Shown: positions 19,137 through 31,424 of the stretch, in pieces | How positions within the stretch are numbered: position 1 is the stretch's first letter | Layout of the letters: the number at the start of each line of letters is the position of its first letter | From: Escherichia phage outra | DNA: 64,000 bases | Sequence record: MN850645.1 | Reading direction: 5' to 3' (one strand) | Notes under the pieces: model-generated | Databases searched by the model: none | Seen by the model: only the letters and a program-made list of their open reading frames with translations | Told to the model about the DNA's origin: nothing | Program-made: the position numbers and the translations under genes

Positions 19137-19340
19137 AAAATTATTTAAAGTTTTTACAGATTTTTGGGTACAAATTTTGAAAATGAAAAGTTCAAGTTTG
19201 GTCAAAATTATTTAAAGTTTTTGTACGTATTTCTATCCAGATTTTGAAAATGAAAACTTCAATTTTTTAAAAATTCCCCAGTTTATTTAAAGTTTTTTTG
19301 CCTTTTTCCGTAGAAAAATCAAAAATGAAAAGTTCAATTT
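19137..19340. repeat. three tandem imperfect direct repeats of about 67 bp
   Basis: each unit contains TTATTTAAAGTTTTT ... GAAAATGAAAAGTTCAA. Confidence 0.7.
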
Positions 19341-19363
19341 CGTGTTTTTATGGGTGTGCGTAT

Positions 19364-19472
19364 GATAATCATTTTCATTTGTAAATGAGAATCATTATCA
19401 TTTAAGTATGTAAGTGATAATCATTCTCAGTAAGAGAATGAGAATCATTAGCAAATGAGAATTTTCTCATTT
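19364..19472. promoter_or_regulatory. cluster of Fur-box-like palindromes (AATGAGAATCATTATCA etc.)
   Basis: 19384-19400 matches 14/15 of the E. coli Fur consensus core ATGATAATCATTATC; further GATAATCATTCTC-type palindromes at 19416-19472. Confidence 0.5.
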
Positions 19473-19734
19473 AGAGAATAACGCGCAGGGGCGGTGTTTG
19501 TCTCGCGCTCCCGTGTCCCCTCGCCATACAATAAGAATAGCATAACCAACAACAAAAGCAAGCGATTATTTTTATCTTTACATTTCTTTACAAATTTATT
19601 TTAGACGAGCTACCGGCGATCAACCTTCCAACCAGTAGTGCCCTGGTATGTTAGCCCCGCCTTTACGCCGTGGGGGTGGCGCTTCCTCTTCTGTATGTAA
19701 AACAGTATAAGCCCGATCCCTGGGCTTGTCAAGA

Positions 19735-20001
19735 TTATTTTTTGTTTTCTTGCCAGGATAGGACACCTAGCCAAAAATACATGTCGCCCCGCGCCCCTGG
19801 CGGGATCTTGCTTTCCCCGCCGCCACTGCAAGCCCATAGATAACCATTTGCGAACGTATCAAAATGATCTATTTCTTCCACCTTATGATCGCCCAGGTTG
19901 AGAACGGTTTCAACCTTTAAGCCCGTTGCGCTTGCTACCTGGTGCACCGTGCCGCCTTGCCAGCCTAATGAGTGCATGAGGTGTAAAGTAGTATTTGTCA
20001 T
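19735..20001 (-). CDS. hypothetical protein (88 aa), GC-rich, divergent from island
   Basis: ATG 20001 with AAGGG SD; possible minus-strand promoter TTGCTA-18-TATTAT at 20049-20078. Confidence 0.45.
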   Translation of the reverse strand: MTNTTLHLMHSLGWQGGTVHQVASATGLKVETVLNLGDHKVEEIDHFDTFANGYLWACSGGGESKIPPGARGDMYFWLGVLSWQENKK

Positions 20002-20112
20002 GGTATCGCCCTTTCTTTGATGTGCGCCCTGGTTGGCGCGGTAGAAAGATAATAGCCCCTTTCCTTTATAGATAGCAAGCAAAAAAGAAATGAAAAAAGA
20101 TTAAAAAAGGGG

Positions 20113-20141
20113 TTGACGTTCCTCACCTGGTAGCGTATTAT
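20113..20141 (+). promoter_or_regulatory. sigma70-like promoter
   Basis: -35 TTGACG 20113-18, 17-bp spacer, -10 TATTAT 20136-41. Confidence 0.55.
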
Positions 20142-20268
20142 TCATCTTGTCGAGGGGGGCGAGGCACAACGACAATAAACAAAAGGAGGGCGCAATGCAG
20201 GACGGGCAAAGGTGAGGATCTCCACAATCCACCGTCACAATAACATTACTTATAAAAGGTTGATAACG

Positions 20269-20364
20269 ATGATCAAGAAAGAAAACAGCTTGACGGTTGG
20301 AACGATTAACGCTATCATTCTAGCCGTTCCATTTTGGATTGTAGTAGCGGTTATTATCTTTTAA
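20269..20364 (+). CDS. hypothetical membrane peptide (31 aa)
   Basis: hand-translated; hydrophobic; weak SD. Confidence 0.25.
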   Translation: MIKKENSLTVGTINAIILAVPFWIVVAVIIF

Positions 20365-20372
20365 AAATATTC

Positions 20373-20428
20373 TTGACAACGTTTTTTAATCTGATAAGAT
20401 GTATCACATAGGGCGGCAATAGTGCCGC
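20373..20428 (+). promoter_or_regulatory. sigma70-like promoter plus type-B leader hairpin
   Basis: -35 TTGACA 20373-78, -10 TAAGAT 20395-400, hairpin GCGGCA-ATAG-TGCCGC 20413-28. Confidence 0.6.
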
Positions 20429-20452
20429 TCATAACAGAAGAGAGAAATAATC

Positions 20453-20725
20453 ATGGCATCATATAGCGCATCAATGATCGTAGCTGGCATCACTGGTAAA
20501 CCTATGCGCGGTGGCGGATCTTTCGCTAACATCAATATTGATGGGCGTTTATCCCTGGATGCAGCGATCACCGTGGCACGGGAAACATTTAAAAAAGAAT
20601 GTAATTTCAATAAACAAGATTATCTCGGCTTCGTTATTGAAAAAACCGCGCGCTTTGTGGATTATAAAAGCCCGAAAATGATCGACACTACACTAAAAGC
20701 GCAAGATGTAGCGTTTTTGCTTTAA
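20453..20725 (+). CDS. hypothetical protein (90 aa)
   Basis: ORF downstream of promoter/hairpin cassette; host-like codons. Confidence 0.55.
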   Translation: MASYSASMIVAGITGKPMRGGGSFANINIDGRLSLDAAITVARETFKKECNFNKQDYLGFVIEKTARFVDYKSPKMIDTTLKAQDVAFLL

Positions 20726-20728
20726 GGC

Positions 20729-20789
20729 TTGACACTTAAAAATAATTTTGTAATATATACCACATAAGGCGGGGAAATGGTTTCCCGCC
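20729..20789 (+). promoter_or_regulatory. sigma70-like promoter plus type-A leader hairpin
   Basis: -35 TTGACA 20729-34, -10 TAATAT 20751-56, hairpin GGCGGGGAAA-TGG-TTTCCCGCC 20768-89. Confidence 0.6.
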
Positions 20790-20811
20790 AAATCAAAGAA
20801 AGGGTAATGCA

Positions 20812-21174
20812 ATGAGCAAGCAAATCAATACTATCATGTTAAACCTGGTATCTTTCCGCGACGACGTGAAAAATCTTCCACGTGATGCAGTGGATGCACG
20901 GATCGAAAGCTATCGCTCACAGATCGCAACGCTACCGCTAAAACGTGATCAACATGCCGCTAATATGATGCTTAATGCTATGCTTAAAAAGATGATTCAA
21001 TGTGATCTTACCCTGGCTTATGAATATGCTGGCGATCTCTTTGTAACATATAGCAAGCCCGTACCAGGTATGAGCACAACCGAAGAATTGCATGCCTTAA
21101 ATCTGCGACAAGATGCATGGGATAACATGCGCCGTGTTATGGTATGGGTAGAAAGCGGTAAAATTTACGAATAA
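20812..21174 (+). CDS. hypothetical protein (120 aa)
   Basis: AAAGGG SD; downstream of cassette. Confidence 0.55.
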   Translation: MSKQINTIMLNLVSFRDDVKNLPRDAVDARIESYRSQIATLPLKRDQHAANMMLNAMLKKMIQCDLTLAYEYAGDLFVTYSKPVPGMSTTEELHALNLRQDAWDNMRRVMVWVESGKIYE

Positions 21175-21180
21175 AAACGG

Positions 21181-21234
21181 TTAACATTGCACTAAAACCT
21201 GATAAGCTATCTTAAAGCGGGAACTATTCCCGCT
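21181..21234 (+). promoter_or_regulatory. weak promoter-like sequence plus leader hairpin variant
   Basis: TTAACA-16-TAAGCT, hairpin AGCGGGAA-CTA-TTCCCGCT 21216-34. Confidence 0.35.
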
Positions 21235-21252
21235 TACATAGGATAAAACTTT

Positions 21253-21402
21253 ATGAAACAATATGTAATGAGTATTCACACCAAAAACGGCGCTACTGTT
21301 ACAACTCCGGCACGGTTTGCACTTGTAAACCGTTGCAAGAGACTAAAACGAGAGTTAAAAAATAACCGTGCAACGGGCTGCTTTAAACGCTGGGGAGGAT
21401 AA
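21253..21402 (+). CDS. hypothetical small protein (49 aa)
   Basis: hand-translated. Confidence 0.4.
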   Translation: MKQYVMSIHTKNGATVTTPARFALVNRCKRLKRELKNNRATGCFKRWGG

Positions 21403-21404
21403 TC

Positions 21405-21677
21405 TTGTTTTTTCTAAAAGTTTTTGATAATGTGATCGCTTTTGAACATGCTACAACGTTCAACCTGGCGAGATACGCTATCAGGTTTAAAGATAATGTT
21501 TATCCCCGTGCTGGTGGCGGTTACACTATCTTTAATCATCGTAACGCTCAATTAACAGATATAACGAATCCAGATCCTGGAGTGTATCGCATAGGCTGGC
21601 TACCGTCAAAAGACGCGGCAAGCATGTTTAAGGTGTGTAAACTACTAACAGAAGAGGCGAACGAACATGGGGCGTGA
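21405..21677 (+). CDS. hypothetical protein (90 aa), TTG start
   Basis: GGAGGA SD before TTG. Confidence 0.45.
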   Translation: MFFLKVFDNVIAFEHATTFNLARYAIRFKDNVYPRAGGGYTIFNHRNAQLTDITNPDPGVYRIGWLPSKDAASMFKVCKLLTEEANEHGA

Positions 21678-22221
21678 ATATGTGATCCAGTCATGGGTAA
21701 AGCATGACGCTAATGATCCGCGCATAATACCAGATGACATGATCGATCACATGGTAGGGTACAGCGGGGAGCAGATAGGGAATCGAGCGGCAAAGAGCAA
21801 CGGGCACACAAAGACGCGATCCGTTCGCCCTGGTTGGCTGGCAAATGGTAACGCTGACATTGCAAGCGCCGCAGATCCAAGCGATGACGCTAAAAATAAT
21901 CCCTTATATAGCATTGATCCGGCTTTTAAGGTGTTAGAAGAGTATCCCGCTAAATTAGCCGCACTAGATAAGGCATACGAAGAAAAGCGCATGGCATGGA
22001 CTGTATACAACACCGCTAAAATGGTGCTAGATGCAAAATTGATTAAAGCCCAGGAGAAGATCAATAAACTTGTTGCAGTAGCGCAAGAGGAAGACCAGGA
22101 CGACCAGGAGGAAGAGGAAGAAATCATGCCTACCCTGGAAGAGGAAGAGATCCAGCCATACATGCCGACGGAAGAGGAAAAAAGACAAGCCCTAAAAAAT
22201 TATGAAAATTGCATTGTGTAA
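21667..22221 (+). CDS. hypothetical protein with acidic C-terminal tail (184 aa)
   Basis: ORF; C-terminus QEEDQDDQEEEEE. Confidence 0.5.
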   Translation: MGREYVIQSWVKHDANDPRIIPDDMIDHMVGYSGEQIGNRAAKSNGHTKTRSVRPGWLANGNADIASAADPSDDAKNNPLYSIDPAFKVLEEYPAKLAALDKAYEEKRMAWTVYNTAKMVLDAKLIKAQEKINKLVAVAQEEDQDDQEEEEEIMPTLEEEEIQPYMPTEEEKRQALKNYENCIV

Positions 22222-22224
22222 GGC

Positions 22225-22280
22225 TTGACATATGCAAATAAGCCCCGTAATATGTACCACATAAAGCGGGGCAACGCCCC
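22225..22280 (+). promoter_or_regulatory. sigma70-like promoter plus short GC hairpin
   Basis: -35 TTGACA 22225-30, -10 TAATAT 22248-53, hairpin GGGGC-AAC-GCCCC 22268-80. Confidence 0.5.
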
Positions 22281-22302
22281 ATAAAGTGAAATAAAAAATC
22301 AC

Positions 22303-22330
22303 TTGACACCTGAAATCAGTAAGCTATAAT
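22303..22330 (+). promoter_or_regulatory. consensus sigma70 promoter
   Basis: -35 TTGACA 22303-08, 16-bp spacer, -10 TATAAT 22325-30. Confidence 0.65.
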
Positions 22331-22367
22331 GCTTATATAGATTGAAACATTACTAAGGAATAAAAGC

Positions 22368-22547
22368 ATGGCTATTATTGCAAAAACTGAGATCGTAGGT
22401 TTAGATTCTATCATCCTGGCATATGAGGAAGCTGTAGAAATGTATGTGGTTTCCTATGGTGATTATATCCGTGAATATAAATCTATTGATCTAGCTTTTG
22501 AATGCTATATTCGCCAGGTCAATAAAGCATATGATGATTATCGTTAA
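22368..22547 (+). CDS. hypothetical small protein (59 aa)
   Basis: hand-translated; AAGGA SD. Confidence 0.45.
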   Translation: MAIIAKTEIVGLDSIILAYEEAVEMYVVSYGDYIREYKSIDLAFECYIRQVNKAYDDYR

Positions 22548-22566
22548 AAGTTTTAGTCTTGTGCTA

Positions 22567-22595
22567 TTGACAACGAACGATAGTACAAGCATAAT
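22567..22595 (+). promoter_or_regulatory. sigma70-like promoter
   Basis: -35 TTGACA 22567-72, 17-bp spacer, -10 CATAAT 22590-95. Confidence 0.5.
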
Positions 22596-22642
22596 AACTT
22601 TTATCGGGAATACTCCTAACTAATCAAAAGAGATTAAAGACT

Positions 22643-23008
22643 ATGGCTAAAAATATCAATGTTTCTGCTTATGCTACCCTGGCTAACACTGCTAAAATTG
22701 AACTATCTAGCATTGAAGCGGTACATATTAGCGCCCGTCGCTGGTTTCAAAAGTCTTATGGTAACACTTATTTCTCTTTGATGGTTGACGTTGAGATCGG
22801 CGGTAAACTGATCGAAGTCGTTAACGTTCCGTTTCACTATGGCTACGGGGATCATTTTGATACCGTTGCCCTAGAAGAGTTTAGCAAGGTTATCAACCTG
22901 GAAGGTAAAGAGTTTTCAAATTATGCCTACCTTTCCCGTTTTTGCCGTGATAATGGGATCGCTGTATACAGTCATGCAAGCGATGTTAAACGTAAAAAAG
23001 ATTTATAA
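22643..23008 (+). CDS. hypothetical protein (121 aa)
   Basis: ORF downstream of promoter. Confidence 0.55.
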   Translation: MAKNINVSAYATLANTAKIELSSIEAVHISARRWFQKSYGNTYFSLMVDVEIGGKLIEVVNVPFHYGYGDHFDTVALEEFSKVINLEGKEFSNYAYLSRFCRDNGIAVYSHASDVKRKKDL

Positions 23009-23014
23009 AAAGCA

Positions 23015-23079
23015 TTGACAGCACGAATAAAAAGCGTAAAATGTTTCATATCAGGACGGGGAACGAAGTAACACCCCGT
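23015..23079 (+). promoter_or_regulatory. sigma70-like promoter plus hairpin (no ORF immediately downstream)
   Basis: -35 TTGACA 23015-20, -10 TAAAAT 23037-42, hairpin ACGGGG...CCCCGT 23056-79. Confidence 0.45.
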
Positions 23080-23128
23080 TAAGTAGCCCAGGAGTAAGGC
23101 ACACGAAAAACTCCCCTGATAAAATAGT

Positions 23129-23186
23129 TTGACAATGGTTTCTAATAACGTATAATACTTACATCGAGAGCGGGAACACTTCCCGC
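23129..23186 (+). promoter_or_regulatory. consensus sigma70 promoter plus leader hairpin
   Basis: -35 TTGACA 23129-34, -10 TATAAT 23151-56, hairpin GCGGGAA-CAC-TTCCCGC 23170-86. Confidence 0.65.
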
Positions 23187-23211
23187 CTCACTGAAAAAAG
23201 AGATTAACATC

Positions 23212-23451
23212 ATGGCTAAATCTAAAATGTTCTTAGGTCACAAAAACAAAACTCATTGGAATGTAAGCCTTTGGATCAACAACGATGAAGGTTTTTATAA
23301 TCTTGCGCGTGAATTTATCGCAGCTAACACCAATAAGAATGACGCAGCGCGTGATATGATGTTATTTCTTGAAAGTATGGATCAAGATAAAACGCCAGAC
23401 GGTTACAAGTTCAGTAAAACCGCGATCCGTGCCGCTATGGTTGGAATGTAA
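23212..23451 (+). CDS. hypothetical protein (79 aa)
   Basis: ORF downstream of cassette. Confidence 0.55.
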   Translation: MAKSKMFLGHKNKTHWNVSLWINNDEGFYNLAREFIAANTNKNDAARDMMLFLESMDQDKTPDGYKFSKTAIRAAMVGM

Positions 23452-23546
23452 AGGAGACATAAAAATGAAACATCGTTCGACCTATCTCACAAAACGTTTT
23501 AGCTTAGATCATAAATTGGGCTATTACGGAAGAAATAGAAAATAAT

Positions 23547-23606
23547 TTGACAACGTTTTAAATTAGTGTAAGATATATCACATAGGGCGGGAAATGGTTT
23601 CCCGCC
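23547..23606 (+). promoter_or_regulatory. sigma70-like promoter plus type-A leader hairpin
   Basis: -35 TTGACA 23547-52, -10 TAAGAT 23569-74, hairpin GGCGGGAAA-TGG-TTTCCCGCC 23586-606. Confidence 0.65.
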
Positions 23607-23628
23607 AAATCAAAGAAAGGTTATCATT

Positions 23629-23856
23629 ATGGCTATCATTATTGTTCGCGTATCCGGTACGGTTGGAAGCTCCCAGGTAGTAGCAGTTATCACCGAGAAG
23701 AAAGGGGATGATCTTCACTCTTCCTTGAATAGCTGGGCGGTAGCTAACTTCGGGCAATGGTCGAGCGTTGAGTACATCGAATCCTACCAGGTGCCAACGA
23801 TTAGCCTAACCGATCTAAATGTTGATCGCTTGTTGTGCCTGGATGGATTAAACTAA
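23629..23856 (+). CDS. hypothetical protein (75 aa)
   Basis: ORF downstream of cassette. Confidence 0.55.
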   Translation: MAIIIVRVSGTVGSSQVVAVITEKKGDDLHSSLNSWAVANFGQWSSVEYIESYQVPTISLTDLNVDRLLCLDGLN

Positions 23857-23864
23857 AAATAATC

Positions 23865-23920
23865 TTGACAAGATAACTAAAATCAGTAAAATGTAATGCA
23901 TAGGGCGGCAATAGTGCCGC
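23865..23920 (+). promoter_or_regulatory. sigma70-like promoter plus type-B leader hairpin
   Basis: -35 TTGACA 23865-70, -10 TAAAAT 23887-92, hairpin GCGGCA-ATAG-TGCCGC 23905-20. Confidence 0.6.
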
Positions 23921-23943
23921 TCCTAGTGAGAGAGATTATCAAA

Positions 23944-24156
23944 ATGGCTAATATCCGCACACTGTTAAAAAATGCAAAACAAGTTTTATTTTCTGATCAC
24001 GATCATTTTAATAAAGATATTACAGGCGTGAAGAATATCAAAGAGGTAAAAAGTGTTATGGGTATCTATTGCAATATGAAGCGAGTAGGCACATTTGGTG
24101 ATAAAGTATTATATCAGGCAGGTGACTACAATTTTACTTTGACAATTATCAACTAA
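23944..24156 (+). CDS. hypothetical protein (70 aa)
   Basis: start moved to ATG 23944 (track start 23896 lies inside promoter/hairpin). Confidence 0.5.
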   Translation: MANIRTLLKNAKQVLFSDHDHFNKDITGVKNIKEVKSVMGIYCNMKRVGTFGDKVLYQAGDYNFTLTIIN

Positions 24157-24167
24157 GGGATCACAAA

Positions 24168-24326
24168 ATGAAAACTTGCCAATGTGGTAAAAAGTCTATC
24201 TCTGGTTTAAAACGTGGCGTTGCTCTTTGTCAATATCACTATAACGCTCAAACGTGGGGTAAGCAGTGGGCGGATCAGGTGGAAGAGGCAAAGAAAGAAA
24301 ATATAAAAGTAGTTGCAAAGAAATAA
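24168..24326 (+). CDS. small Zn-ribbon-like protein (52 aa)
   Basis: hand-translated; CQCG...CQYH motif. Confidence 0.4.
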   Translation: MKTCQCGKKSISGLKRGVALCQYHYNAQTWGKQWADQVEEAKKENIKVVAKK

Positions 24327-24373
24327 AAATAGAGTAAACTGTATTCATCAAGGCGGTGGAATAGCTCACCGCC
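24313..24373 (+). promoter_or_regulatory. promoter-like sequence plus leader hairpin variant
   Basis: TTGCAA-16-TAAACT, hairpin GGCGGTG...CACCGCC 24352-73. Confidence 0.4.
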
Positions 24374-24397
24374 TAACAAAGAGAAGAGGAAAACATC

Positions 24398-24568
24398 ATG
24401 ATCACTTTCGCTACCCGTGAAGCCGCTCGCAACGTTGCACGTAAAGTTAATGCCGCCAACCTGGGCGCTACGCTTAAAGCCCCGGTAAAAGATGAATCAG
24501 GTAAATGGATCTTTCCTGGTCTGCGTCACGCTGATAAGCTGGGAACATTAACGTTAAAAAATAAATAA
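24398..24568 (+). CDS. hypothetical small protein (56 aa)
   Basis: hand-translated; GAGGA SD. Confidence 0.45.
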   Translation: MITFATREAARNVARKVNAANLGATLKAPVKDESGKWIFPGLRHADKLGTLTLKNK

Positions 24569-24575
24569 TATCCGC

Positions 24576-24634
24576 TTGACAGTAGCATGGTTTATAAGTA
24601 AAGTAACAACAACGGCGGGAAATGGTTTCCCGCC
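24576..24634 (+). promoter_or_regulatory. sigma70-like promoter plus type-A leader hairpin
   Basis: -35 TTGACA 24576-81, -10 TAAAGT 24599-604, hairpin GGCGGGAAA-TGG-TTTCCCGCC 24614-34. Confidence 0.55.
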
Positions 24635-24654
24635 ATCAATAAAGAGATAAGATT

Positions 24655-25014
24655 ATGAAATCAGTAAAAGCAATCAAAACTTACATTGTATCGGCTATTT
24701 CTTTTGAAGGTACTACAACCGAAAAAGAAAAAATCACCGAACTGATGCGCCGTTTTAATTCTGAATACTGGTATCCCGATAATCAAAAACGTTACAATTA
24801 TAACGTGATCAAGGCGATAGCCTCATGGTTACAAGGTTTACCGTCAGACATTAACATTGCCTTTGATTATAACGAGATTGATCATTTATTAATTGAATGG
24901 AAGTACATAAAAGAAACAAGCAAAGAAACAACCGTTACCCGTGAGCGGGAAAATTATTGGTTATATATTGCAAGCATGATCGTAATCCTGGCAAAACAGC
25001 ATAACGTGGCGTAA
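24655..25014 (+). CDS. hypothetical protein (119 aa)
   Basis: ORF downstream of cassette. Confidence 0.55.
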   Translation: MKSVKAIKTYIVSAISFEGTTTEKEKITELMRRFNSEYWYPDNQKRYNYNVIKAIASWLQGLPSDINIAFDYNEIDHLLIEWKYIKETSKETTVTRERENYWLYIASMIVILAKQHNVA

Positions 25015-25029
25015 TTAAGAGGAAGAAAC

Positions 25030-25167
25030 ATGAACGCATCACAGCAGATCGAAAAATTCAACCGCAGCAAGGCGCGTAAAGATTGGAACGAAGAGATCAC
25101 CAAAAAAGGCGACAAGCGGAACAAAACAAAAAGAGATCGCAGCACAAAAAGATACTGGAACGAATAA
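25030..25167 (+). CDS. hypothetical small basic protein (45 aa)
   Basis: hand-translated; GAGGA SD; Lys/Arg-rich. Confidence 0.4.
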   Translation: MNASQQIEKFNRSKARKDWNEEITKKGDKRNKTKRDRSTKRYWNE

Positions 25168-25174
25168 CAAAAAA

Positions 25175-25196
25175 GGGCGCAATAAGCGCCCTTTTA
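25175..25196 (+). terminator. rho-independent terminator
   Basis: GGGCGC-AATAA-GCGCCC stem-loop followed by TTTT. Confidence 0.65.
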
Positions 25197-25286
25197 GCTT
25201 ATATAGGGGCTTGTTACCCATAGGCAATGGTAACGCCAGGGCAAGCCTATAAATCAACGTTAGACGGCTTTACAGGAGCTTTAAAA

Positions 25287-25469
25287 ATGAGATTAGAAGA
25301 AATAAGCAAGGCACTAGACCAGGAGCAAAGGTTATGCGCCCGATATCGTGATCAATATGGCTTCATAACTAGCGGCGTGATCCTGGGGATGGAAGGCAAT
25401 AAGATTTTTATTGACACGTTGAAAAACGTTGTATATAGTGACAATATAATCTCAATAAAACATATATGA
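25287..25469 (+). CDS. hypothetical small protein (60 aa)
   Basis: start moved to ATG 25287 with AGGAG SD. Confidence 0.4.
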   Translation: MRLEEISKALDQEQRLCARYRDQYGFITSGVILGMEGNKIFIDTLKNVVYSDNIISIKHI

Positions 25470-25477
25470 GGCAAGAA

Positions 25478-25879
25478 ATGAAAAACTTATTGATCGCTGG
25501 TTTAATCTCTTTTGGCATGGTTGGAACATCTAGCGCGGCGATATCCTCCACAGTAGCAGAATTAAGCGCCGTTGATGCAATGGAAAACGTCATGCTTATT
25601 AATAATGCGATCCCCGATGAAATCATGGAGGATTCACACATGATCGCTTATGGTGCTGTTACACAACTAACGGCAAAAATAGATAAATCTATTGTTAATG
25701 GCTTAAATGAAGATGTACCATGTGAAATTATTACCAGTGTGCTGACTACTCAAAATTTTACGCCGTGGTTAAAAAGTATTCAAAAAGTACACAGTACAGC
25801 CGCAGATCGTAGCAATGAAAAACTAGTGTCAGCACTTGCAACGTATACCCTAGCAAAATGCACTGAGATAAAAGATTGA
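25478..25879 (+). CDS. putative secreted/periplasmic protein
   Basis: MKNLLIAGLISFGMVGTSSA signal-peptide-like N-terminus; GAGG SD. Confidence 0.5.
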   Translation: MKNLLIAGLISFGMVGTSSAAISSTVAELSAVDAMENVMLINNAIPDEIMEDSHMIAYGAVTQLTAKIDKSIVNGLNEDVPCEIITSVLTTQNFTPWLKSIQKVHSTAADRSNEKLVSALATYTLAKCTEIKD

Positions 25880-25904
25880 CAACATAGAAAGCACGTTATA
25901 AGAT
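25876..25904 (+). promoter_or_regulatory. sigma70-like promoter
   Basis: -35 TTGACA 25876-81, 17-bp spacer, -10 TAAGAT 25899-904. Confidence 0.5.
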
Positions 25905-25926
25905 ACACACAACAAAGGAGAACTAC

Positions 25927-26229
25927 ATGAACGGCATAGCTAAAACGTTTTTTCTTTTTTCTGGTGTAAATGATCCATCAATAAAAGTCGATAGTGTAAA
26001 AGAAAAAAATACTATCACCGCTAAATTGTTTCAAGATGAAACAAATAACGTGCTAATCATTAATCTTAAAGAAGTAACGAAAGGTTATTATACTATTGCT
26101 TACCATGCGATCTATCATGCTGGTACTGGTGAGGAAGTGCAAACAAGCAACAACGAAAGCGCGGCGCTACCTGGTGATCTGGTGCTGGGCGTTATCAGTT
26201 TAATTGTCAATGATTTTTTTAAGGAGTAA
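25927..26229 (+). CDS. hypothetical protein (100 aa)
   Basis: AAAGGAG SD. Confidence 0.55.
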   Translation: MNGIAKTFFLFSGVNDPSIKVDSVKEKNTITAKLFQDETNNVLIINLKEVTKGYYTIAYHAIYHAGTGEEVQTSNNESAALPGDLVLGVISLIVNDFFKE

Positions 26230-26233
26230 AACC

Positions 26234-26329
26234 ATGCCCTATTTACATTTATTTTTCGGTATCTTATTAACAGGATCTTTTTTCTTCTGTATGCTTGTTT
26301 CTATTGTAAACCACGTTTTAAGACATTAA
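26234..26329 (+). CDS. hypothetical membrane peptide (31 aa)
   Basis: hand-translated; AAGGAG SD; hydrophobic. Confidence 0.35.
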   Translation: MPYLHLFFGILLTGSFFFCMLVSIVNHVLRH

Positions 26330-26338
26330 GGAAACAGC

Positions 26339-26458
26339 ATGAAAATTATTCCCGTACAATATAGCGTAATAAATCCAGCATATGAGGAAGGAAGGAAAAC
26401 AAGCATGGCTTTATGTTGTATTGCTACTATAGCCATGTTGTTATACATTGTGTTTTAA
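26339..26458 (+). CDS. hypothetical membrane peptide (39 aa)
   Basis: hand-translated; AAGGAA SD; hydrophobic C-terminus. Confidence 0.35.
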   Translation: MKIIPVQYSVINPAYEEGRKTSMALCCIATIAMLLYIVF

Positions 26459-26487
26459 TAGGTTTTATAGTTGTACGCTTTAAAGGC

Positions 26488-26516
26488 TTGACAATTTTTT
26501 GTTATGCTTTAAACTA
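26488..26516 (+). promoter_or_regulatory. promoter-like sequence (good -35, weak -10)
   Basis: -35 TTGACA 26488-93; -10 candidate weak. Confidence 0.3.
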
Positions 26517-26558
26517 TATCTTGAAAACGGCAAAGGCCGCAAACAAAAGGGTAAAATT

Positions 26559-26882
26559 ATGAAATCTGTGATCGGTGTTTATTTGGATAACTCTGATTTT
26601 TTCTATCATCGCGCGCGTTTACTTGATGCTATTGAAATGATAGAATCAGGCTTTAAAGAGTATCGCCTTGCACATGATGACCTGGAAGCATTACAGGGCA
26701 ATAGTGTTTTTACATTGCAAGCGAAAGCACTATGCAAAAGCCGGATCGAGATTGCAAGTAAAAAGATAGAGCGCGGCATGTCCTGGTTGCGCACCGCAGA
26801 AATCAACATGGGGCAATGGTACGGCGAAAACTTAGAAAATAAACATGCTTTTGTCAATGTAGAAAATATTGAAGATTATTGA
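26559..26882 (+). CDS. hypothetical protein (107 aa)
   Basis: start moved to ATG 26559. Confidence 0.5.
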   Translation: MKSVIGVYLDNSDFFYHRARLLDAIEMIESGFKEYRLAHDDLEALQGNSVFTLQAKALCKSRIEIASKKIERGMSWLRTAEINMGQWYGENLENKHAFVNVENIEDY

Positions 26883-26944
26883 TTGACAGCACACCGAACG
26901 GGGAGTATATTGTATCTCATAGAGCGGGGAAATGGTTTCCCCGC
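26883..26944 (+). promoter_or_regulatory. sigma70-like promoter plus type-A leader hairpin
   Basis: -35 TTGACA 26883-88, -10 TATATT 26906-11, hairpin GCGGGGAAA-TGG-TTTCCCCGC 26924-44. Confidence 0.6.
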
Positions 26945-26964
26945 CTTAAAAGAAGAGATAAGCT

Positions 26965-27249
26965 ATGAAGATCACAAAAGCACTTTCCAACTATGCAGCA
27001 CGTCGCGGCTTATGTTTAACCGTTGAAAACCTGGGGAAAGAAGATTTTTTGTGCTTTTGGGAGCTTGAGAATGATAATGAGTGGATCTTCTCTTATTCTA
27101 TCTGCGAAGATCAAAACGGTTGTTTATTAGCCTGGCGCGGTAATATCTATCTACCGGAAGAAATCAAAGAAGAATTACCAGGCACGATCATGACTGAGAA
27201 ACAGCTTAAGGAAGTGATCAATTTTGTAGGGCAAAACATTAAAAAATAA
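26965..27249 (+). CDS. hypothetical protein (94 aa)
   Basis: ORF downstream of cassette. Confidence 0.55.
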   Translation: MKITKALSNYAARRGLCLTVENLGKEDFLCFWELENDNEWIFSYSICEDQNGCLLAWRGNIYLPEEIKEELPGTIMTEKQLKEVINFVGQNIKK

Positions 27250-27250
27250 T

Positions 27251-27307
27251 TTGACACTAGGCAAACAACGTAGTAAAGTTTATCACATAGGGCGGCAATA
27301 GTGCCGC
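27251..27307 (+). promoter_or_regulatory. sigma70-like promoter plus type-B leader hairpin
   Basis: -35 TTGACA 27251-56, -10 TAAAGT 27274-79, hairpin GCGGCA-ATAG-TGCCGC 27292-307; leader nearly identical to 20401-20452. Confidence 0.6.
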
Positions 27308-27330
27308 TCATAACAGAAGAGAAACAAATC

Positions 27331-27501
27331 ATGATCCCAACTATGTTTTATGTATCGCGCAAAGGTCACAATATTTTTTGGTCTGAAGATTTAAATGAAG
27401 CCATGACGTTTGCCCGTGATCGTGTCGCTATCGGTGGCGTTAACATTACCGTAACCGATGAAAATGGCATTGAATACTATAACGGCGACGATGAAGAGTA
27501 A
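27331..27501 (+). CDS. hypothetical small protein (56 aa)
   Basis: start moved to ATG 27331 (track start inside hairpin). Confidence 0.5.
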   Translation: MIPTMFYVSRKGHNIFWSEDLNEAMTFARDRVAIGGVNITVTDENGIEYYNGDDEE

Positions 27502-27508
27502 TTAATGA

Positions 27509-27529
27509 GGCGGGGGAATATTCCCCGCC
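27509..27529 (+). promoter_or_regulatory. intercistronic leader-type hairpin
   Basis: GGCGGGGGAA-TA-TTCCCCGCC between two ORFs without a recognisable promoter. Confidence 0.45.
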
Positions 27530-27548
27530 GTCAATAAAGAGGTAAATC

Positions 27549-27818
27549 ATGAAAATATCATTGGACGTTGCAATCAAGGCCATCGAATCCGGTTACACCC
27601 TGGTAAAAGATGATAAGGCTAAAATAGTGCATCATGTTAACAAGGAAACAGGCGAAAGCATGATCACATATAAAGCCGCCTACTTTCTCCAATCAGTAGC
27701 AGATCCGCGCGTACAACGCCAGGTTACGGCGGCTATTGCTAAAAAAGTATGTGCTTTACAGGGTACAAGTTTTAACGAGATCGCCCCGTGTTTTGACTGG
27801 TCGAGCTTGAAAAAATAG
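27549..27818 (+). CDS. hypothetical protein (89 aa)
   Basis: GAGG SD. Confidence 0.55.
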   Translation: MKISLDVAIKAIESGYTLVKDDKAKIVHHVNKETGESMITYKAAYFLQSVADPRVQRQVTAAIAKKVCALQGTSFNEIAPCFDWSSLKK

Positions 27819-27819
27819 T

Positions 27820-27847
27820 TTGACAATATGCGGTTATCTGGTAAAGT
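27820..27847 (+). promoter_or_regulatory. sigma70-like promoter (degenerate hairpin follows)
   Basis: -35 TTGACA 27820-25, -10 TAAAGT 27842-47. Confidence 0.5.
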
Positions 27848-27899
27848 GTACGACATAGGGCGGGGCAATAAGGCAACGCCCACTAATGAGGGTAAAATC

Positions 27900-28004
27900 A
27901 TGTTAGAGAAAATTTTCACGGTTGTAGTAGTGGGCCTGGCGTTATCGGTTGGAGTGATTGCAACTATGGCTAACATGATCCTATCTTCCCACGGTATTGG
28001 ATAA
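27900..28004 (+). CDS. hypothetical membrane peptide (34 aa)
   Basis: hand-translated; GAGGG SD; hydrophobic. Confidence 0.35.
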   Translation: MLEKIFTVVVVGLALSVGVIATMANMILSSHGIG

Positions 28005-28014
28005 GGTGAATCAA

Positions 28015-28230
28015 ATGATCACGAATAAGACAGGTAAAACAGAATTTTTACGCGGCTTGCAAATTGGTAAACCTGAAATATGGCATTGCACTAAATCCGC
28101 GCATAATGAGATGAAAGACTTTACCGCCACGTTACAACGTGTTAAAATATCTATTACGCAGAAAAAAGCCTTATTAGTAGTAGAAAACGAGATACCGCAA
28201 ACCATTATTATTGTCGAGCGTACAGCATGA
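28015..28230 (+). CDS. hypothetical protein (71 aa)
   Basis: start moved to ATG 28015 with AAGGTG SD. Confidence 0.45.
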   Translation: MITNKTGKTEFLRGLQIGKPEIWHCTKSAHNEMKDFTATLQRVKISITQKKALLVVENEIPQTIIIVERTA

Positions 28231-28613
28231 AAACTGAAATCATTATTGAAATCATCAACGGTTATAAAGAAGCCTTTATTTTTGCTGAATCAGCCAGGGA
28301 TCATGAAGGTAATTTTGTAAACGACATGACTGACTATGATTTTTCAGATCAAGCCCATCAGCGGATCATTCATGACGTAGCGGCTTATTGTGATGCCAAT
28401 GATGCTGCTATCTCTGAGGCAATGAGCGACGGCGCAACAGCAAACCAGATCGGGAATGACTTACATTTCACCCGTAACGGTCACGGCGTAGGCTTTTGGG
28501 ATCGCCCTGAAATATACACTACTAACACCGCCAACCGCCTAACAAATGCAGCTAAATTAATGCCATCGGTGCATGCTTACATTGGTGAAGATAATTTGAT
28601 TTATATTGAATAA
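28227..28613 (+). CDS. hypothetical protein (128 aa)
   Basis: 4-nt overlap with upstream gene. Confidence 0.55.
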   Translation: MKTEIIIEIINGYKEAFIFAESARDHEGNFVNDMTDYDFSDQAHQRIIHDVAAYCDANDAAISEAMSDGATANQIGNDLHFTRNGHGVGFWDRPEIYTTNTANRLTNAAKLMPSVHAYIGEDNLIYIE

Positions 28614-28619
28614 AAAGTA

Positions 28620-28678
28620 TTGACACCGATCCCCGATATGTTATTATTTACCACGTAGGCGGGAAATGGTTTCCCGCC
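28620..28678 (+). promoter_or_regulatory. sigma70-like promoter plus type-A leader hairpin
   Basis: -35 TTGACA 28620-25, -10 TATTAT 28642-47, hairpin GGCGGGAAA-TGG-TTTCCCGCC 28658-78. Confidence 0.65.
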
Positions 28679-28702
28679 AGGTAATCAAAAAAGGTAAATA
28701 CT

Positions 28703-29092
28703 ATGCGCAACCTGGTTTCTGTTTCTAACGTTGAAAAATTTCAATCCTTGCAGGGTATCGTTAACAACGTAGCGCCTTTTCTAGTCAATGGCTTGATTGC
28801 AAAGATGAAAAATAAACATCATGCAGCATGGTCTGCTTACTGCTTTGATAATGATGAAAAAGCGGCTGAAATGATGTTAAATATGCTGTTAGATAGTGTA
28901 GAATCATCTTTACCGGAAAACATCGCAGAAGAGATCACCTATCGTTATAATATGGCGATCACCTATCAGGAGGTTGCGCAATTCAATATGATGGACGATG
29001 ACGAACAACAGGATCAGGAAATGTTTTGGGAATATGCAGATCGTCAATCGGCTTTTGATGAAAAGTTAGCGATGTATTATAACGAATATTAA
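28703..29092 (+). CDS. hypothetical acidic protein (129 aa)
   Basis: AAAGG SD; downstream of cassette. Confidence 0.55.
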   Translation: MRNLVSVSNVEKFQSLQGIVNNVAPFLVNGLIAKMKNKHHAAWSAYCFDNDEKAAEMMLNMLLDSVESSLPENIAEEITYRYNMAITYQEVAQFNMMDDDEQQDQEMFWEYADRQSAFDEKLAMYYNEY

Positions 29093-29108
29093 TACACGGT
29101 AAAAGAAA

Positions 29109-29133
29109 GGGGCGCACTAAGCGCCCTTTTTTG
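29109..29133 (+). terminator. rho-independent terminator
   Basis: GGGGCGC-ACTA-AGCGCCC stem-loop followed by TTTTTTG. Confidence 0.7.
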
Positions 29134-29477
29134 TATTCTTTTTCACGATGGAAGTAACACGTAAAGAATAAACGTAAGAGGTGGCGTAAAACAGCCTAAA
29201 ACCGATTATAACCGCTTAAACAAGGTAGTAATGACTAATCACCTTGCCAGGATGAAAAAGCTGTTATAAAGCTATCTAGAGCGTTTAAAGCACATAGGAA
29301 ATAATTTGCTTTTTATCTTGCCTTTTATCCTGCTTTTGATTATTATTATGGAACGGGCGGCACCTGGGGACAGGGGAAGATAATCACCGGAAGATCCCGC
29401 TATATATTAATAGCTAATACCTATCAAACAACAAAACATCAAAGGAATAAACTATCAAATCTTTACAATCCTACCTA

Positions 29478-29537
29478 TTGACACAGGATCACCCTTATAC
29501 TAATATGTATCCCGTAGGGCGGGAAATGGTTTCCCGC
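29478..29537 (+). promoter_or_regulatory. sigma70-like promoter plus type-A leader hairpin
   Basis: -35 TTGACA 29478-83, 17-bp spacer, -10 TAATAT 29501-06, hairpin GCGGGAAA-TGG-TTTCCCGC 29519-37. Confidence 0.65.
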
Positions 29538-29556
29538 TTGATATAGGAATCATACC

Positions 29557-29790
29557 ATGATCGAACAAATTAAAAGCACTACACCAAATGTTAACGGCAA
29601 TGTTTCACACTTTATCGGTGATAATGAAAGGGGCACACCATACGCCGCCGTAACCGTGCAACCTAACGGGGATTATTGGTTTACCGTGTACGGATCATAC
29701 TCTTTCGGACGCCCGGCACATGATAAGATCTTGCAAGCGGTTAAACCTGCGGGGAAGAATATCACAGTAGAAAAATTCTATGAAAAATAA
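29557..29790 (+). CDS. hypothetical protein (77 aa)
   Basis: ORF downstream of cassette. Confidence 0.55.
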   Translation: MIEQIKSTTPNVNGNVSHFIGDNERGTPYAAVTVQPNGDYWFTVYGSYSFGRPAHDKILQAVKPAGKNITVEKFYEK

Positions 29791-29865
29791 CTTGCTTTAT
29801 AGCCTCTGTTAATTTATAGTTATCGTGTAGGGCAAACAATTTTAAACGGTAAACGAGGAATCACC

Positions 29866-30249
29866 ATGAGCAATATCATCAACCTGGCAGCGACTGTAAA
29901 CGGTAAAGATTTTAACGGCGCTGTAGATCATGATCCTATGTGGTGCTTATCAGTGTTTAAAGGTGACTTGGTTGAAGTTAGAACAACCGAAGGTTATAGC
30001 GACGATTATAAATGCGAGATTCATTTACACAACTGGTACACGGGTAAAACTTATGCGCTGAATCATGCGTTTATCGGCAAGGTTGAATATAGGGAAATGA
30101 TCGACGAAGAAACGGGGCAAGATTTTAGCGATTATGTTTATATTCGTTCCGAGACATTAGCCGAACGTTTGATCGAGAAAATGAAAGCAAAAAATAAAAT
30201 TAATTTAGCTCATTGGATTGATATAACAAACGATCCTGCTTATCAGTAA
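29866..30249 (+). CDS. hypothetical protein (127 aa)
   Basis: GAGGAA SD. Confidence 0.55.
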   Translation: MSNIINLAATVNGKDFNGAVDHDPMWCLSVFKGDLVEVRTTEGYSDDYKCEIHLHNWYTGKTYALNHAFIGKVEYREMIDEETGQDFSDYVYIRSETLAERLIEKMKAKNKINLAHWIDITNDPAYQ

Positions 30250-30263
30250 ATAACATTTCAAAC

Positions 30264-30292
30264 AAGGGCGCTTATTGCGCCCTTTCTTTTTA
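30264..30292 (+). terminator. rho-independent terminator (end of island)
   Basis: AGGGCGC-TTATT-GCGCCCT stem-loop followed by TTCTTTTT. Confidence 0.7.
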
Positions 30293-30496
30293 CCTAAATA
30301 AAGATGATAGCTTTTACCTATCAAAAACGTTCACCGAAAAAAGTGAATAGATCGCGGTATCGAGCTAATCAGGGAGCAGATGAACAACCATACCATGAAG
30401 ATCATAAGGCGCTTACAACGGCTTTTAGACCGCTTATTTTTAATTTCTTCATGCAACTATCTGGCAAAAACAGCCTTTTTCTTGTCTTTCCTCTTA

Positions 30497-30570
30497 AATG
30501 ATAATCATTCTTATTTATAGCTGATTATTTATGCAATAAACTGCATAATGCAATAATGATAATCATTCTT
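30497..30570. promoter_or_regulatory. two Fur-box-like sites (AAATGATAATCATTCTTA; AATAATGATAATCATTCTT)
   Basis: GATAATCATT core shared with Fur consensus. Confidence 0.45.
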
Positions 30571-31424
30571 AACTTATGACCATCTAACCTATAAAATAAT
30601 AAGCTATCTAACTAAATTAAAACTAATTATCTCACCTTTATTTATAACTTACTGTTACTATCTCATTGATAACCTTATATTAAACAACAATAACTAATAT
30701 AAATCATTACTAAGCTAAATATAATCTATCTAACCTTTAAAACTATAACTATAATCTATCGAATTGTTGCACAAAGTAACTATTAAATTGTTAGTAACAT
30801 TGCTAAATAATTAATATCCTATCTATTTATGATCTAATCTTTACCTTCCTATTTATTACCTAAATAACCATTTCATATAGTAATTATTTCATACAATAAC
30901 TATAACAAGAAACATAATTCGCAAGCGTATCATTAGCAGCCTATGCCGGACACATAGGCGGCTAATAATAACGCAACTACACACCCCACATAATAACCAT
31001 CACCGATAGTTATTATTTGTGCTTATGTAGCTTGCAACAATTGCAAGCGCAACAATATACTAAGGTATATTGTATCCCTTACATTGTTGCGGTGCGTTAT
31101 TATTAGCTAATGTTTAGAACATTGGCTATAATATAAGCTGCATATAATAAGCTATTCAATAATAAACATCGTGAATAATGACATTGATGATCATAATGCG
31201 CCACCCTCCAGGGGGCGCTATGTGAACACAAAGAAATCTTTCTTATCAAGAAAATATTATCACTATTGCGCAAAATTATTTACATCTGAATAGATGATTT
31301 TTCATACTATTATTGTTATTTGTTGAGCATAGTTATAGCCTATTTGTTGAGCCTACTTTCTTAAAAGCGCAATAAATCAGAATTATCTTGATTTTTAGTG
31401 CGTTTTATAGTATAGAAAATATGC

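Follow-up and report, generated by a model that had tools for sequence, protein, structure and literature searches.

The window analysed here is a 64,000-nt stretch of the genome of Escherichia phage outra (MN850645.1), a Justusliebigvirus (phi92-like, Stephanstirmvirinae), and its subject is an island of small genes at 19480–30292 in which a promoter and a conserved hairpin recur together as a cassette. Genes in the window lie on the minus strand at 1–14 kb, on the plus strand at 14–44 kb and again on the minus strand from 44.6 kb; no tRNA genes were found in the 64 kb. The island is 94–97% identical over 90–99% of its length to Nernie, ESCO8, Paula and other Justusliebigvirus phages, corresponds to Phi92 gp226–gp248 according to the Paula annotation, with nearly all products listed as 'hypothetical protein', and the region is kept in more than 100 sequenced Stephanstirmvirinae. 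An initial annotation had described it as a distinct, promoter-dense island of about 30 small genes with host-like composition. The distinct island is confirmed overall, with two corrections (its GC content is not host-like and the CTG codon is not enriched), and 29 plus-strand genes of 34–184 aa were called in it. The proposed left boundary at 19480 needs a qualification, as 19480–20100 lies outside the plus-strand gene array and carries a minus-strand open reading frame (ORF).

The repeated promoter–hairpin cassette

The strict sigma70 motif, defined as TTGACA-N16/17-TAnnnT, occurs 22 times on the plus strand of the window, and 17 of these motifs are located in the island. Shuffling the island sequence 300 times by dinucleotides gave a mean of 0.17 ± 0.42 motifs and a maximum of 2; the minus strand of the island carries two, and the neighbouring equal-sized block at 31.5–44.1 kb carries four. 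A general promoter scan was concordant, with sites scoring 10–12 out of 12 found almost exclusively on the plus strand with a perfect TTGACA, and A-rich tracts are visible upstream of the −35 boxes in the aligned island promoters. Overall, the island holds about 20 near-consensus sigma70 promoters, each followed by 1–3 small ORFan genes, and the excess of strict motifs (17 against 0.17 expected) bears out the promoter density described in the initial annotation.

Most of the aligned promoters are directly followed by a conserved motif, ...CACATAGGGCGGGAAATGGTTTCCCGCC... or ...GGGCGGCAATAGTGCCGCTC..., and the conserved hairpin at this position is a feature that the initial annotation had missed. 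GC-rich stems of 7–10 bp are borne by 16 promoters and one promoter-less hairpin, 2 of these 17 stems being shorter (4–5 bp). In the window cassettes, the gap between the −10 box and the stem is 6–14 nt (median 10), which would place the onset of the stem at about +3 to +5 if the transcript starts, as predicted, 7 nt after the −10 box. The hairpins have a median folding free energy (ΔG) of −13 kcal/mol, and the start codon follows 17–25 nt further on, after an A/G-rich leader with a ribosome-binding site. The family can be written as GGCGGG...CCCGCC; UGG and AUAG recur as loop sequences, and CACATAG is conserved directly before the hairpin. A set of 133 promoter-proximal hairpins, collected from the window and ten related loci, comprises 28 different stems, and only one of the 133 is followed by a U-tract (five or more T among the next 8 nt). 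No such hairpin was present at the four strict motifs checked in the 32–44 kb block or at the plus-strand motif at 13558.

A covariance model was built from 13 hairpins, and window matches were counted at E ≤ 1. It matched 21 sites in the window, all within 20399–29551 and none in the other 53 kb, and 120 sites in the related loci. In the covariance-model alignment, from which the pair counts were taken (MAFFT alignments of the cassettes follow sequence, not structure), 94% of pair cells are paired and two pairs show compensatory changes; the covariation score lay above 500 of 500 shuffles and all slid controls. Non-Watson–Crick pairs on the sense-strand rows comprise 28 G-U and 4 A-C, an excess that favours an RNA hairpin in the sense transcript over a symmetric DNA palindrome. 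This count replaced a comparison of strand energies, which was dropped as circular because the stems had been defined with G-U allowed on the plus strand; an interior-mismatch scan of the hairpins was too strict to be informative. An Rfam scan of 18.5–32.5 kb returned no family and one sub-threshold small RNA match, which fell on a terminator, and an exact-pattern scan of IMG/VR matched only two contigs, hence no wider distribution can be drawn from it. The repeated promoter–hairpin cassette exists, is confined to the island within the window and is conserved as a structure.

The sixteen cassettes all lie on the plus strand. Cassette 1 (20373–20430) consists of TTGACA-16-TAAGAT and a hairpin at 20411–20430 (ΔG −12.9), and cassette 2 (20729–20789) of TTGACA-16-TAATAT and a hairpin at 20768–20789. 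Cassette 3 (21181–21235) has a weak promoter, TTAACA-16-TAAGCT, with a hairpin at 21215–21235, and cassette 4 (22225–22280; TTGACA-17-TAATAT) has a short hairpin at 22268–22280 and stands in tandem with a perfect consensus promoter (TTGACA-16-TATAAT, 22303–22330, plus strand) that lacks a hairpin. Cassettes 5 (23015–23080; TTGACA-16-TAAAAT, hairpin 23055–23080) and 6 (23129–23186; TTGACA-16-TATAAT, hairpin 23170–23186) are followed by cassette 7 (23547–23606; TTGACA-16-TAAGAT, hairpin 23586–23606), the top covariance-model match at 55 bits, and by cassette 8 (23865–23922; TTGACA-16-TAAAAT, hairpin 23903–23922). Cassette 9 (24313–24374) again has a weak promoter, TTGCAA-16-TAAACT, with a hairpin at 24351–24374, and cassette 10 (24576–24634) combines TTGACA-17-TAAAGT with a hairpin at 24614–24634. 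In cassette 11 (26488–26539; TTGACA-16-TAAACT) the hairpin at 26528–26539 is short (ΔG −4.9). Cassettes 12 (26883–26944; TTGACA-17-TATATT, hairpin 26924–26944) and 13 (27251–27309; TTGACA-17-TAAAGT, hairpin 27290–27309) precede an intercistronic family hairpin without recognisable promoter (27509–27529, plus strand; ΔG −15.9), and the array is completed by cassettes 14 (27820–27881; TTGACA-16-TAAAGT, hairpin 27858–27881), 15 (28620–28678; TTGACA-16-TATTAT, hairpin 28658–28678) and 16 (29478–29539; TTGACA-17-TAATAT, hairpin 29517–29539). Further plus-strand promoters are the first of the island (20113–20141; TTGACG-17-TATTAT), without a family hairpin, one at 22567–22595 (TTGACA-17-CATAAT) without a GC hairpin, and two hairpin-less promoters at 25411–25439 and 25876–25904.

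Gene turnover and gene content

For the analysis of gene turnover, the island was aligned to nine relatives and collinear blocks were chained, with insertions, deletions and replacements counted as rearrangements. About 20–23 distinct events were found, and 35 of the 46 breakpoints fall inside promoter–hairpin intervals, which make up 15.6% of the island (binomial p ~ 1e-19); when the count is limited to breakpoints between genes, cassettes hold 29 of 32 against 49% expected (p ~ 1e-6). Twelve events have sequence common to both flanks (1–40 nt, all but one 7–40 nt), for example AAAAAATAGTTTGACAAT at 27808–27827. Units inserted in relatives consist of one ORF and one cassette, as at the Paula locus 11090–11347, which has its own hairpin match. 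The distal part of cassette 5, including its hairpin (23053–23150), is missing in most relatives, cassette 14 is a hot spot at which relatives bear insertions of 253–469 nt, and at cassette 16 homology with relatives stops exactly at the −35 box. When related phages are compared, the limits of inserted, deleted and replaced genes lie mainly in the cassettes.

The island breaks into 3–12 aligned pieces against 1–3 for an equal-length neighbouring block, and is covered to at least 80% by 18 records against 53; it matches 293 phage records against 121, the additional ones being short high-identity segments in unrelated lineages. Vequintavirus phages (rV5 and others) share window 22356–22549 at 92–94% nucleotide identity, and Asteriusvirus jumbo phages share 23030–23451 at 78–90%, with four covariance-model hairpin matches in the phAPEC6 locus, one of them with the compensated stem GGUGGGGAA/UUCCCCACU. 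The T7-like Kayfunavirus CLBP1 shares 29556–29819 at 87%, and the leader upstream of it resembles another island cassette (27836–27902). The earlier suggestion of horizontal acquisition is borne out by these island segments, found at 82–94% nucleotide identity in Vequintavirus, Asteriusvirus and the T7-like Kayfunavirus. As a separate observation on the records, about 19 'Campylobacter phage' entries (146 kb) and one 'Enterococcus phage heks' contain near-identical coliphage sequence and are probably mislabelled or contaminated.

Position 1 of the Salmonella phage UAB_1 record maps to window position 31349 and that of the BME3 record to 31691; BME3 carries a 342-bp direct terminal repeat as determined by PhageTerm (PMC12210895). 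The physical genome ends are placed inside the window because UAB_1 and BME3 have experimentally defined short terminal repeats, and the putative direct terminal repeat of about 340 bp (31349–31691, no strand assigned) sits within a 1.7-kb AT-rich non-coding region (30.3–31.9 kb). With the ends at this position, the island would stop about 1.1 kb short of the right end of the virion DNA, with transcription running towards that end. The island does not itself represent a long terminal repeat of the T5 first-step-transfer type, as the repeat is only about 340 bp long and lies outside it. In the BME3 record, besides the 342-nt repeat, the first 788 nt recur identically near the record end, so the deposited ends look partly concatenated.

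Together, these features suggest a hyperplastic accessory region of a phi92-like phage, read by the host polymerase and situated just inside the right end of the linear genome, and we consider this reading as a whole probable. Early expression of the island genes from sigma70 promoters is its most secure part and, judging from the promoter sequences, highly probable: the genes would be expressed immediately after infection, and the density of near-consensus promoters fits the earlier proposal that they are read by unmodified host RNA polymerase. The cassettes would provide portable homology for recombination, as proposed for the promoter-early-stem-loop (PeSL) cassettes of T4-like phages, and shuffling mediated by the cassettes is quite likely. 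Through such exchange the island may draw on a gene pool common to unrelated coliphages. In the initial interpretation, then, the sigma70 reading and horizontal exchange stand, and the novelty of the module and its anti-defence role do not. The module is hardly novel, being kept in the more than 100 Stephanstirmvirinae noted above and having an architecture that fits the published model of PeSLs and hyperplastic regions (PMC2839356, PMC4122927).

All genes called in the island are on the plus strand. A doubtful 50-aa ORF with a GTG start and a C-terminal hydrophobic segment (20212–20364; no PHROG or Pfam match) is followed by genes for 90 aa (20453–20725; phrog_8099), 120 aa (20812–21174; phrog_7352, with a 69% nucleotide match in the jumbo phage phAPEC6), 49 aa (21253–21402; phrog_8393) and 90 aa (21405–21677; phrog_17947), and by one for 184 aa with an acidic tail and a net charge of −15 (21667–22221; phrog_16605, no PDB sequence match). 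The 59-aa gene at 22368–22547 (phrog_9374) is absent from four relatives and has 92–94% nucleotide identity in rV5-like phages. Next come genes for 121 aa (22643–23008; phrog_6246) and 79 aa (23212–23451), the latter a Pfam match to DUF7249, a family found on contigs of 42 to 358 kb and for which a literature search found no papers, and one for 75 aa (23629–23856; phrog_13850). The adjacent genes for 71 aa (23941–24156; phrog_12266) and 52 aa (24168–24326; no PHROG match) form a pair (23941–24326) that is replaced or deleted in relatives. They are followed by genes for 56 aa (24398–24568; phrog_13689), 119 aa (24655–25014; phrog_11100) and 45 aa (25030–25167), the last of the T7 gp1.1 family (PF08200, E 6.5e-12; phrog_2490).

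The second half of the array comprises genes for 80 aa (25227–25469; phrog_25271), 137 aa with a signal-peptide-like N-terminus (25466–25879; phrog_27054) and 100 aa (25927–26229; phrog_10737), a putative 39-aa membrane peptide (26339–26458; phrog_10979 'membrane protein', and hydrophobicity), and genes for 107 aa (26559–26882; phrog_25921), 94 aa (26965–27249; phrog_6147), 56 aa, acidic (27331–27501; phrog_20874) and 89 aa (27549–27818; no PHROG or Pfam match, annotated in relatives). A 34-aa gene predicted to be transmembrane (27900–28004; phrog_14631) and a 71-aa gene (28015–28230; phrog_5988) precede an acidic product of 128 aa (28227–28613; phrog_1915), in which the motif RNGHGxGFWDR is invariant across 52 diverse homologues; its AlphaFold2 model (predicted local distance difference test, pLDDT, 96) has no fold match in the PDB, and the product may be an uncharacterised enzyme or ligand-binding fold. 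The array ends with genes for 129 aa, acidic, with a net charge of −13 (28703–29092; phrog_15485), 77 aa (29557–29790; phrog_9227, 87% nucleotide identity in CLBP1) and 127 aa of the T4 gp30.8 family (29866–30249; PF06019, E 4e-29), which recurs at about 40% amino acid identity in about 950 further phage records, those listed being T4-like.

PHROG families are matched by 26 of the 29 products (25 of 'unknown function' and one 'membrane protein'), which argues that these are real, recurrent phage genes. The only Pfam matches in the island, DUF7249, T7 gp1.1 and T4 gp30.8, are all to uncharacterised families; for families of known function, every island protein stays below the curated Pfam cut-off. 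Two confident AlphaFold models (pLDDT 96 and 91) match no solved fold in the PDB, and PDB sequence searches with island proteins were empty or insignificant (E ≥ 0.25). Three products are strongly acidic, with net charges between −13 and −15, and a hydrophobic segment of transmembrane or signal-like type is present in about five.

That annotation had also proposed a dedicated immediate-early host-takeover or anti-defence module whose small proteins inhibit host enzymes or immunity. Such a function is compatible with the cassette architecture, and the early-type promoters, the small, variable and partly acidic or membrane proteins, the high turnover between relatives expected of arms-race genes and a candidate counter-defence gene just upstream (18370–18921) all speak for it. 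The Pfam, PHROG and structural results given above point the other way, as does the report that phi92-like phages are exceptionally sensitive to restriction–modification (PMC8594841), and no island protein was assigned by sequence or fold to a known anti-defence or takeover family (Ocr, ArdA, Acb, Tad, Gad, anti-CRISPR) in general profile searches that included no dedicated anti-defence profile set. The proposal was thus not upheld; an anti-defence or takeover role stays a reasonable guess without positive evidence, and a module dedicated to it appears rather unlikely.

The upstream gene at 18370–18921 (plus strand) encodes a NADAR-domain protein (PF08719, E 2e-36) whose EC.P2 homologue is annotated as 'N-glycosidase'. 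NADAR domains reverse DNA ADP-ribosylation, and this gene is a more tangible candidate for counter-defence than any of those in the island. Upstream of it lie an AAA-type ATPase gene (15995–17122, plus strand) and a gene for 390 aa (17197–18369, plus strand) with a CapR homology domain in three stretches and HNH-endonuclease-like PHROG matches. Non-coding DNA left of the island (19120–19340) contains three tandem copies of a 67–79-nt AT-rich unit (GC 0.23), which could be an origin or packaging-related element. Fur-box-like repeats (GATAATGATAATCATTATC, 2–3 mismatches) gave five matches against 0.09 expected; these sites (19360–19462, 30496–30570 and 31423–31441) are found to the left and right of the island, and the best match falls inside the putative terminal repeat. 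The minus-strand ORF at the left edge (19738–20001; 88 aa; phrog_19316, E 2e-59, no Pfam match) lies in a GC-rich patch outside the cassette array and is annotated in Paula, ESCO8 and others. Close to it are a strong minus-strand promoter at 19704–19732 (TTGACA-17-TATACT, 11/12), aimed leftwards into the repeat region, and, between this ORF and the first island unit, a divergent promoter pair at 20049–20141. In the neighbouring block on the right, a 150-aa protein (33684–34136, plus strand) weakly matches the T4 goF mRNA-metabolism modulator in PHROG (E 9e-7), and in phage Eryne this block carries a gene annotated as goF-like.

Composition and the role of the hairpin

Composition is not uniform along the window, and GC content at third codon positions (GC3), codon usage and CpG step sharply at the island. 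Overall GC is 0.402 in the island against 0.367 in the rest of the window, a small difference and far from E. coli, whose GC content is about 0.51. GC3 is 0.391 against 0.26–0.31 elsewhere (per-gene Mann–Whitney p = 2e-9) and 0.56 in E. coli, for which a 30-kb sample with GC measured by codon position only was used. The codons GCG, CCG and CGC are 2–6 times commoner in the island than elsewhere, as the initial annotation had seen by eye, and CTG, which it had included, is not enriched (12.2 per 1000 against 8.5–14.3). Relative synonymous codon usage (RSCU) of the island correlates with that of the other blocks at 0.57–0.69, against 0.90–0.95 among the latter, and with E. coli at 0.53, against 0.00–0.21 for the other blocks.

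The CpG ratio is 1.04–1.24 in every 2-kb bin of 20–32 kb against 0.50–0.78 in other bins (about 1.2 for 20100–32000 and 0.65 for the rest), with 0.86 in the boundary bin at 18–20 kb and the left edge of the discontinuity near 19.4 kb. Karlin δ* (×1000) between the island and the other blocks is 151–193, against 36–59 among these blocks and 88 between the island and E. coli. Observed/expected values for 20100–32000 and for the rest are 3.0 and 0.55 for GCGC, 1.66 and 0.33 for CGCG, 2.3 and 1.2 for GATC, and 0.36 and 0.53 for CTAG. The bulk under-represents GCGC, CGCG and CCGG, with GATC near expectation there, and CCGG is less depleted in the island. Coding sequences alone have a CpG ratio of 1.23, therefore the hairpins are not the source of the raised CpG and GC content, and the ratio at codon boundaries (phase 3-1; 1.12 against 0.59) indicates that the shift is not one of codon choice alone. 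Five Justusliebigvirus relatives have the step as well, and CpG depletion is also lacking from the homologous region of Phapecoctavirus ASO2A; as a general trait of hyperplastic regions it is unsupported, T4 having no step around gp30.8 and a ratio of 0.7–1.1 throughout. Of the host-like composition first proposed, the oligonucleotide signature, nearer to E. coli than to the rest of the phage, stands and the GC content does not; derivation of the island from the host is rejected on GC (0.40 against about 0.51), GC3 (0.39 against 0.56) and the lack of CTG enrichment.

The foreign signature is explained most economically by gene flux through the cassettes, and a gene pool shared among coliphages would account for its more E. 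coli-like character. The shift could alternatively reflect selection on early genes for the host tRNA pool before phage tRNAs are available, in line with the rise of GCG, CCG and CGC towards E. coli usage, the higher RSCU correlation with E. coli and the conservation of the shift in two genera. CTG, the main E. coli-preferred codon, nevertheless does not rise, CpG is restored across codon boundaries and in the non-coding 30–32 kb bin as well, palindromes avoided in the bulk are over-represented (GCGC, CGCG, GATC) or less depleted (CCGG), and direct cross-family nucleotide matches show ongoing exchange, so that selection for host tRNAs seems an improbable source of the shift.

Within the mRNA, the hairpin would act as a 5′-terminal stabiliser against 5′-end-dependent decay (RppH, RNase E) and not as a terminator. 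In 16 units the transcript is predicted to begin about 3–5 nt before the 7–10-bp hairpin, with the A/G-rich leader and start codon following at the spacing given above. We favour this role because the hairpin comes right after the predicted start, lacks a U-tract and leaves the ribosome-binding site free downstream, yet hold it tentatively, at slightly under an even chance. Stabilisation of mRNA by ompA-type 5′ hairpins is established biology.

True terminators are also present: bidirectional intrinsic terminators at 25171–25195 (AAAAGGGCGC-loop-GCGCCCTTTT) and 29104–29132 (GGGGCGC stem), and a bidirectional terminator with a GGGCGC stem at the island end (30264–30284). These three share GGGCGC/GCGCCC stems, and elsewhere in the window the stems are of CCCGC or GGGGC types. 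The contrast in stem type drawn by the initial annotation accordingly stands for the three terminators, but most GC stems of the island are 5′-leader hairpins. In deposited records, the same hairpins are annotated as rho-independent terminators, mostly on the minus strand and opposite to the genes in Paula, and in the repeated order promoter, 'terminator', CDS (coding sequence) in ASO2A. Following these records and the interpretation given to PeSLs, the hairpins could terminate or attenuate transcription and so shield each unit from read-through arriving from upstream; one PeSL stem-loop equalled rrnB T1 in lowering lacZ expression (PMC2839356), and with about 20 strong promoters per 10 kb and only three canonical terminators, damping of cumulative read-through is plausible. 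The cassette hairpins, however, have neither of the marks of rho-independent termination, a stem with a U-tract and a position downstream of a gene: a U-tract occurs in 1 of 133 and the tails are A-rich leaders. As canonical terminators between a promoter and its own gene they make no sense, since a gene behind an efficient terminator would be silent; three canonical bidirectional terminators of another sequence type are present in the island besides, and the Paula calls lie on the strand opposite to all genes. Insulation by termination is thus an unlikely main role. Still less likely is that a regulator or recombinase encoded by the phage binds the inverted repeats as DNA or as RNA (joint early shut-off or integron-like cassette mobilisation), an idea also raised by the PeSL authors (PMC2839356) and suited by sequence kept beyond pairing needs (GGCGGG core, UGG/AUAG loops, upstream CACATAG) and by a position of about +3 to +24 appropriate for a roadblock repressor, but opposed by 28 distinct stems that change sequence and keep pairing, by the 28:4 ratio of G-U over A-C, which speaks against a symmetric DNA operator, and by Pfam and PHROG profile searches that gave no candidate regulator or recombinase among the island proteins.

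Several points weigh against the reading of the island as a cassette-shuffled early region with stabilising hairpins. The literature search turned up no transcriptome for the phi92-like group, and the transcription start site is a prediction from −10 spacing alone. Five island promoters have no hairpin and one hairpin has no promoter. The covariance alignment is model-fitted and its sequences are related, which inflates the covariation and the G-U/A-C counts to an unknown degree. Purifying selection alone favours intergenic breakpoints, to which the intergenic-only test is a partial answer, and the events are not all independent. The distinct signature is kept in two genera and could reflect region-specific selection and not gene flux. 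Finally, PeSL stem-loops experimentally lower read-through (PMC2839356), so an attenuator role is possible even without a U-tract. In a bolder extension, to which we give little credence, a single family of promoter, 5′ hairpin and ORF units would circulate among phi92/phAPEC8-like, 350-kb jumbo, rV5-like and T7-like phages as an early pool with an E. coli-like signature resisting amelioration, the hairpin being, besides an mRNA element, the signal for recognition or crossover in an active mobility mechanism akin to integron attC sites.

Comparison with known systems

The closest known system is the PeSL cassette, an AT-rich tract, strong sigma70 promoter, G/C stem-loop and Shine–Dalgarno sequence upstream of ORFans, with insertions and deletions bounded by cassettes (Arbiol et al. 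2010, PMC2839356; Comeau et al. 2014, PMC4122927). The literature search found PeSLs described for T4-like phages only, and no such cassettes for phi92-, phAPEC8- or rV5-like phages. The island cassettes share a promoter with an AT-rich tract, a stable G/C stem-loop, a Shine–Dalgarno sequence with an ORFan start, and hyperplastic concentration, and we read the island, by analogy, as a PeSL-type region in another phage lineage with a different hairpin family. In both systems the composite stands repeatedly and directly upstream of small ORFans, is densest where the genome varies most, and bounds the insertions, deletions and replacements between close relatives; the gp30.8-family gene of the island is itself a resident of the T4 hyperplastic region. 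The island, in contrast, belongs to Stephanstirmvirinae, its hairpin family also occurring in an Asteriusvirus jumbo phage, and its covariance model finds no hairpin in 40 kb of T4. Its hairpin is fixed downstream of the predicted start and lacks a U-tract, whereas PeSLs have five variable placements, and the island shows a sharp discontinuity in oligonucleotide signature. PeSLs are further marked by a promoter highly active in vivo, by a stem-loop acting as terminator or attenuator, and by mini-circles arising from recombination between cassettes during infection; the island cassettes are described here at the sequence level.

If this analogy is correct, the shuffling of regulatory cassettes is not peculiar to T4-like phages and would be a general route by which large virulent coliphages gain and express small accessory genes, and the cassettes would serve in practice to locate such regions. 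Two points are worth following, the reach of PeSL-type shuffling into further phage families and the compositional boundary; a CpG boundary as sharp as 1.2 against 0.65 within one virus genome bears on the speed of accessory-gene turnover in phages. A recurrent annotation error is also corrected, namely the deposition as terminators of hairpins that lie between promoter and gene. The island is a natural site tolerant of insertion and deletion, useful for engineering therapeutic phi92-like phages, and the cassette would make a compact unit for early expression, probably both strong and stable. The roughly 29 island proteins are reasonable candidates for host-interaction or counter-defence screens, although nothing here shows such roles.

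The T7 class I genes (promoters A1–A3) and the T5 pre-early and early genes are small, non-essential, host-acting genes with strong host-type promoters near a genome end. Host-type promoters cluster near the physical genome end in the island too, but T7 and T5 use few promoters that feed operons and have several characterised products (Ocr, gp0.7, A1/A2), whereas the island packs about 20 promoters into 10 kb, has no product that is characterised, and is transcribed towards the genome end. With the ompA 5′ untranslated region the island shares a stable hairpin a few nucleotides from the predicted 5′ end and an unstructured leader with a ribosome-binding site after it; the island hairpin differs in being a repeated, sequence-conserved family that is not gene-specific, and is described here at the sequence level. 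In morons and integron cassettes, too, a single gene brings its expression signal along and is inserted between resident genes. Integrons, however, use attC sites and an integrase, and no recombinase was found in the island, while morons lack a conserved flanking repeat; for the island, homology-driven exchange through the promoter–hairpin repeat is the simplest reading.

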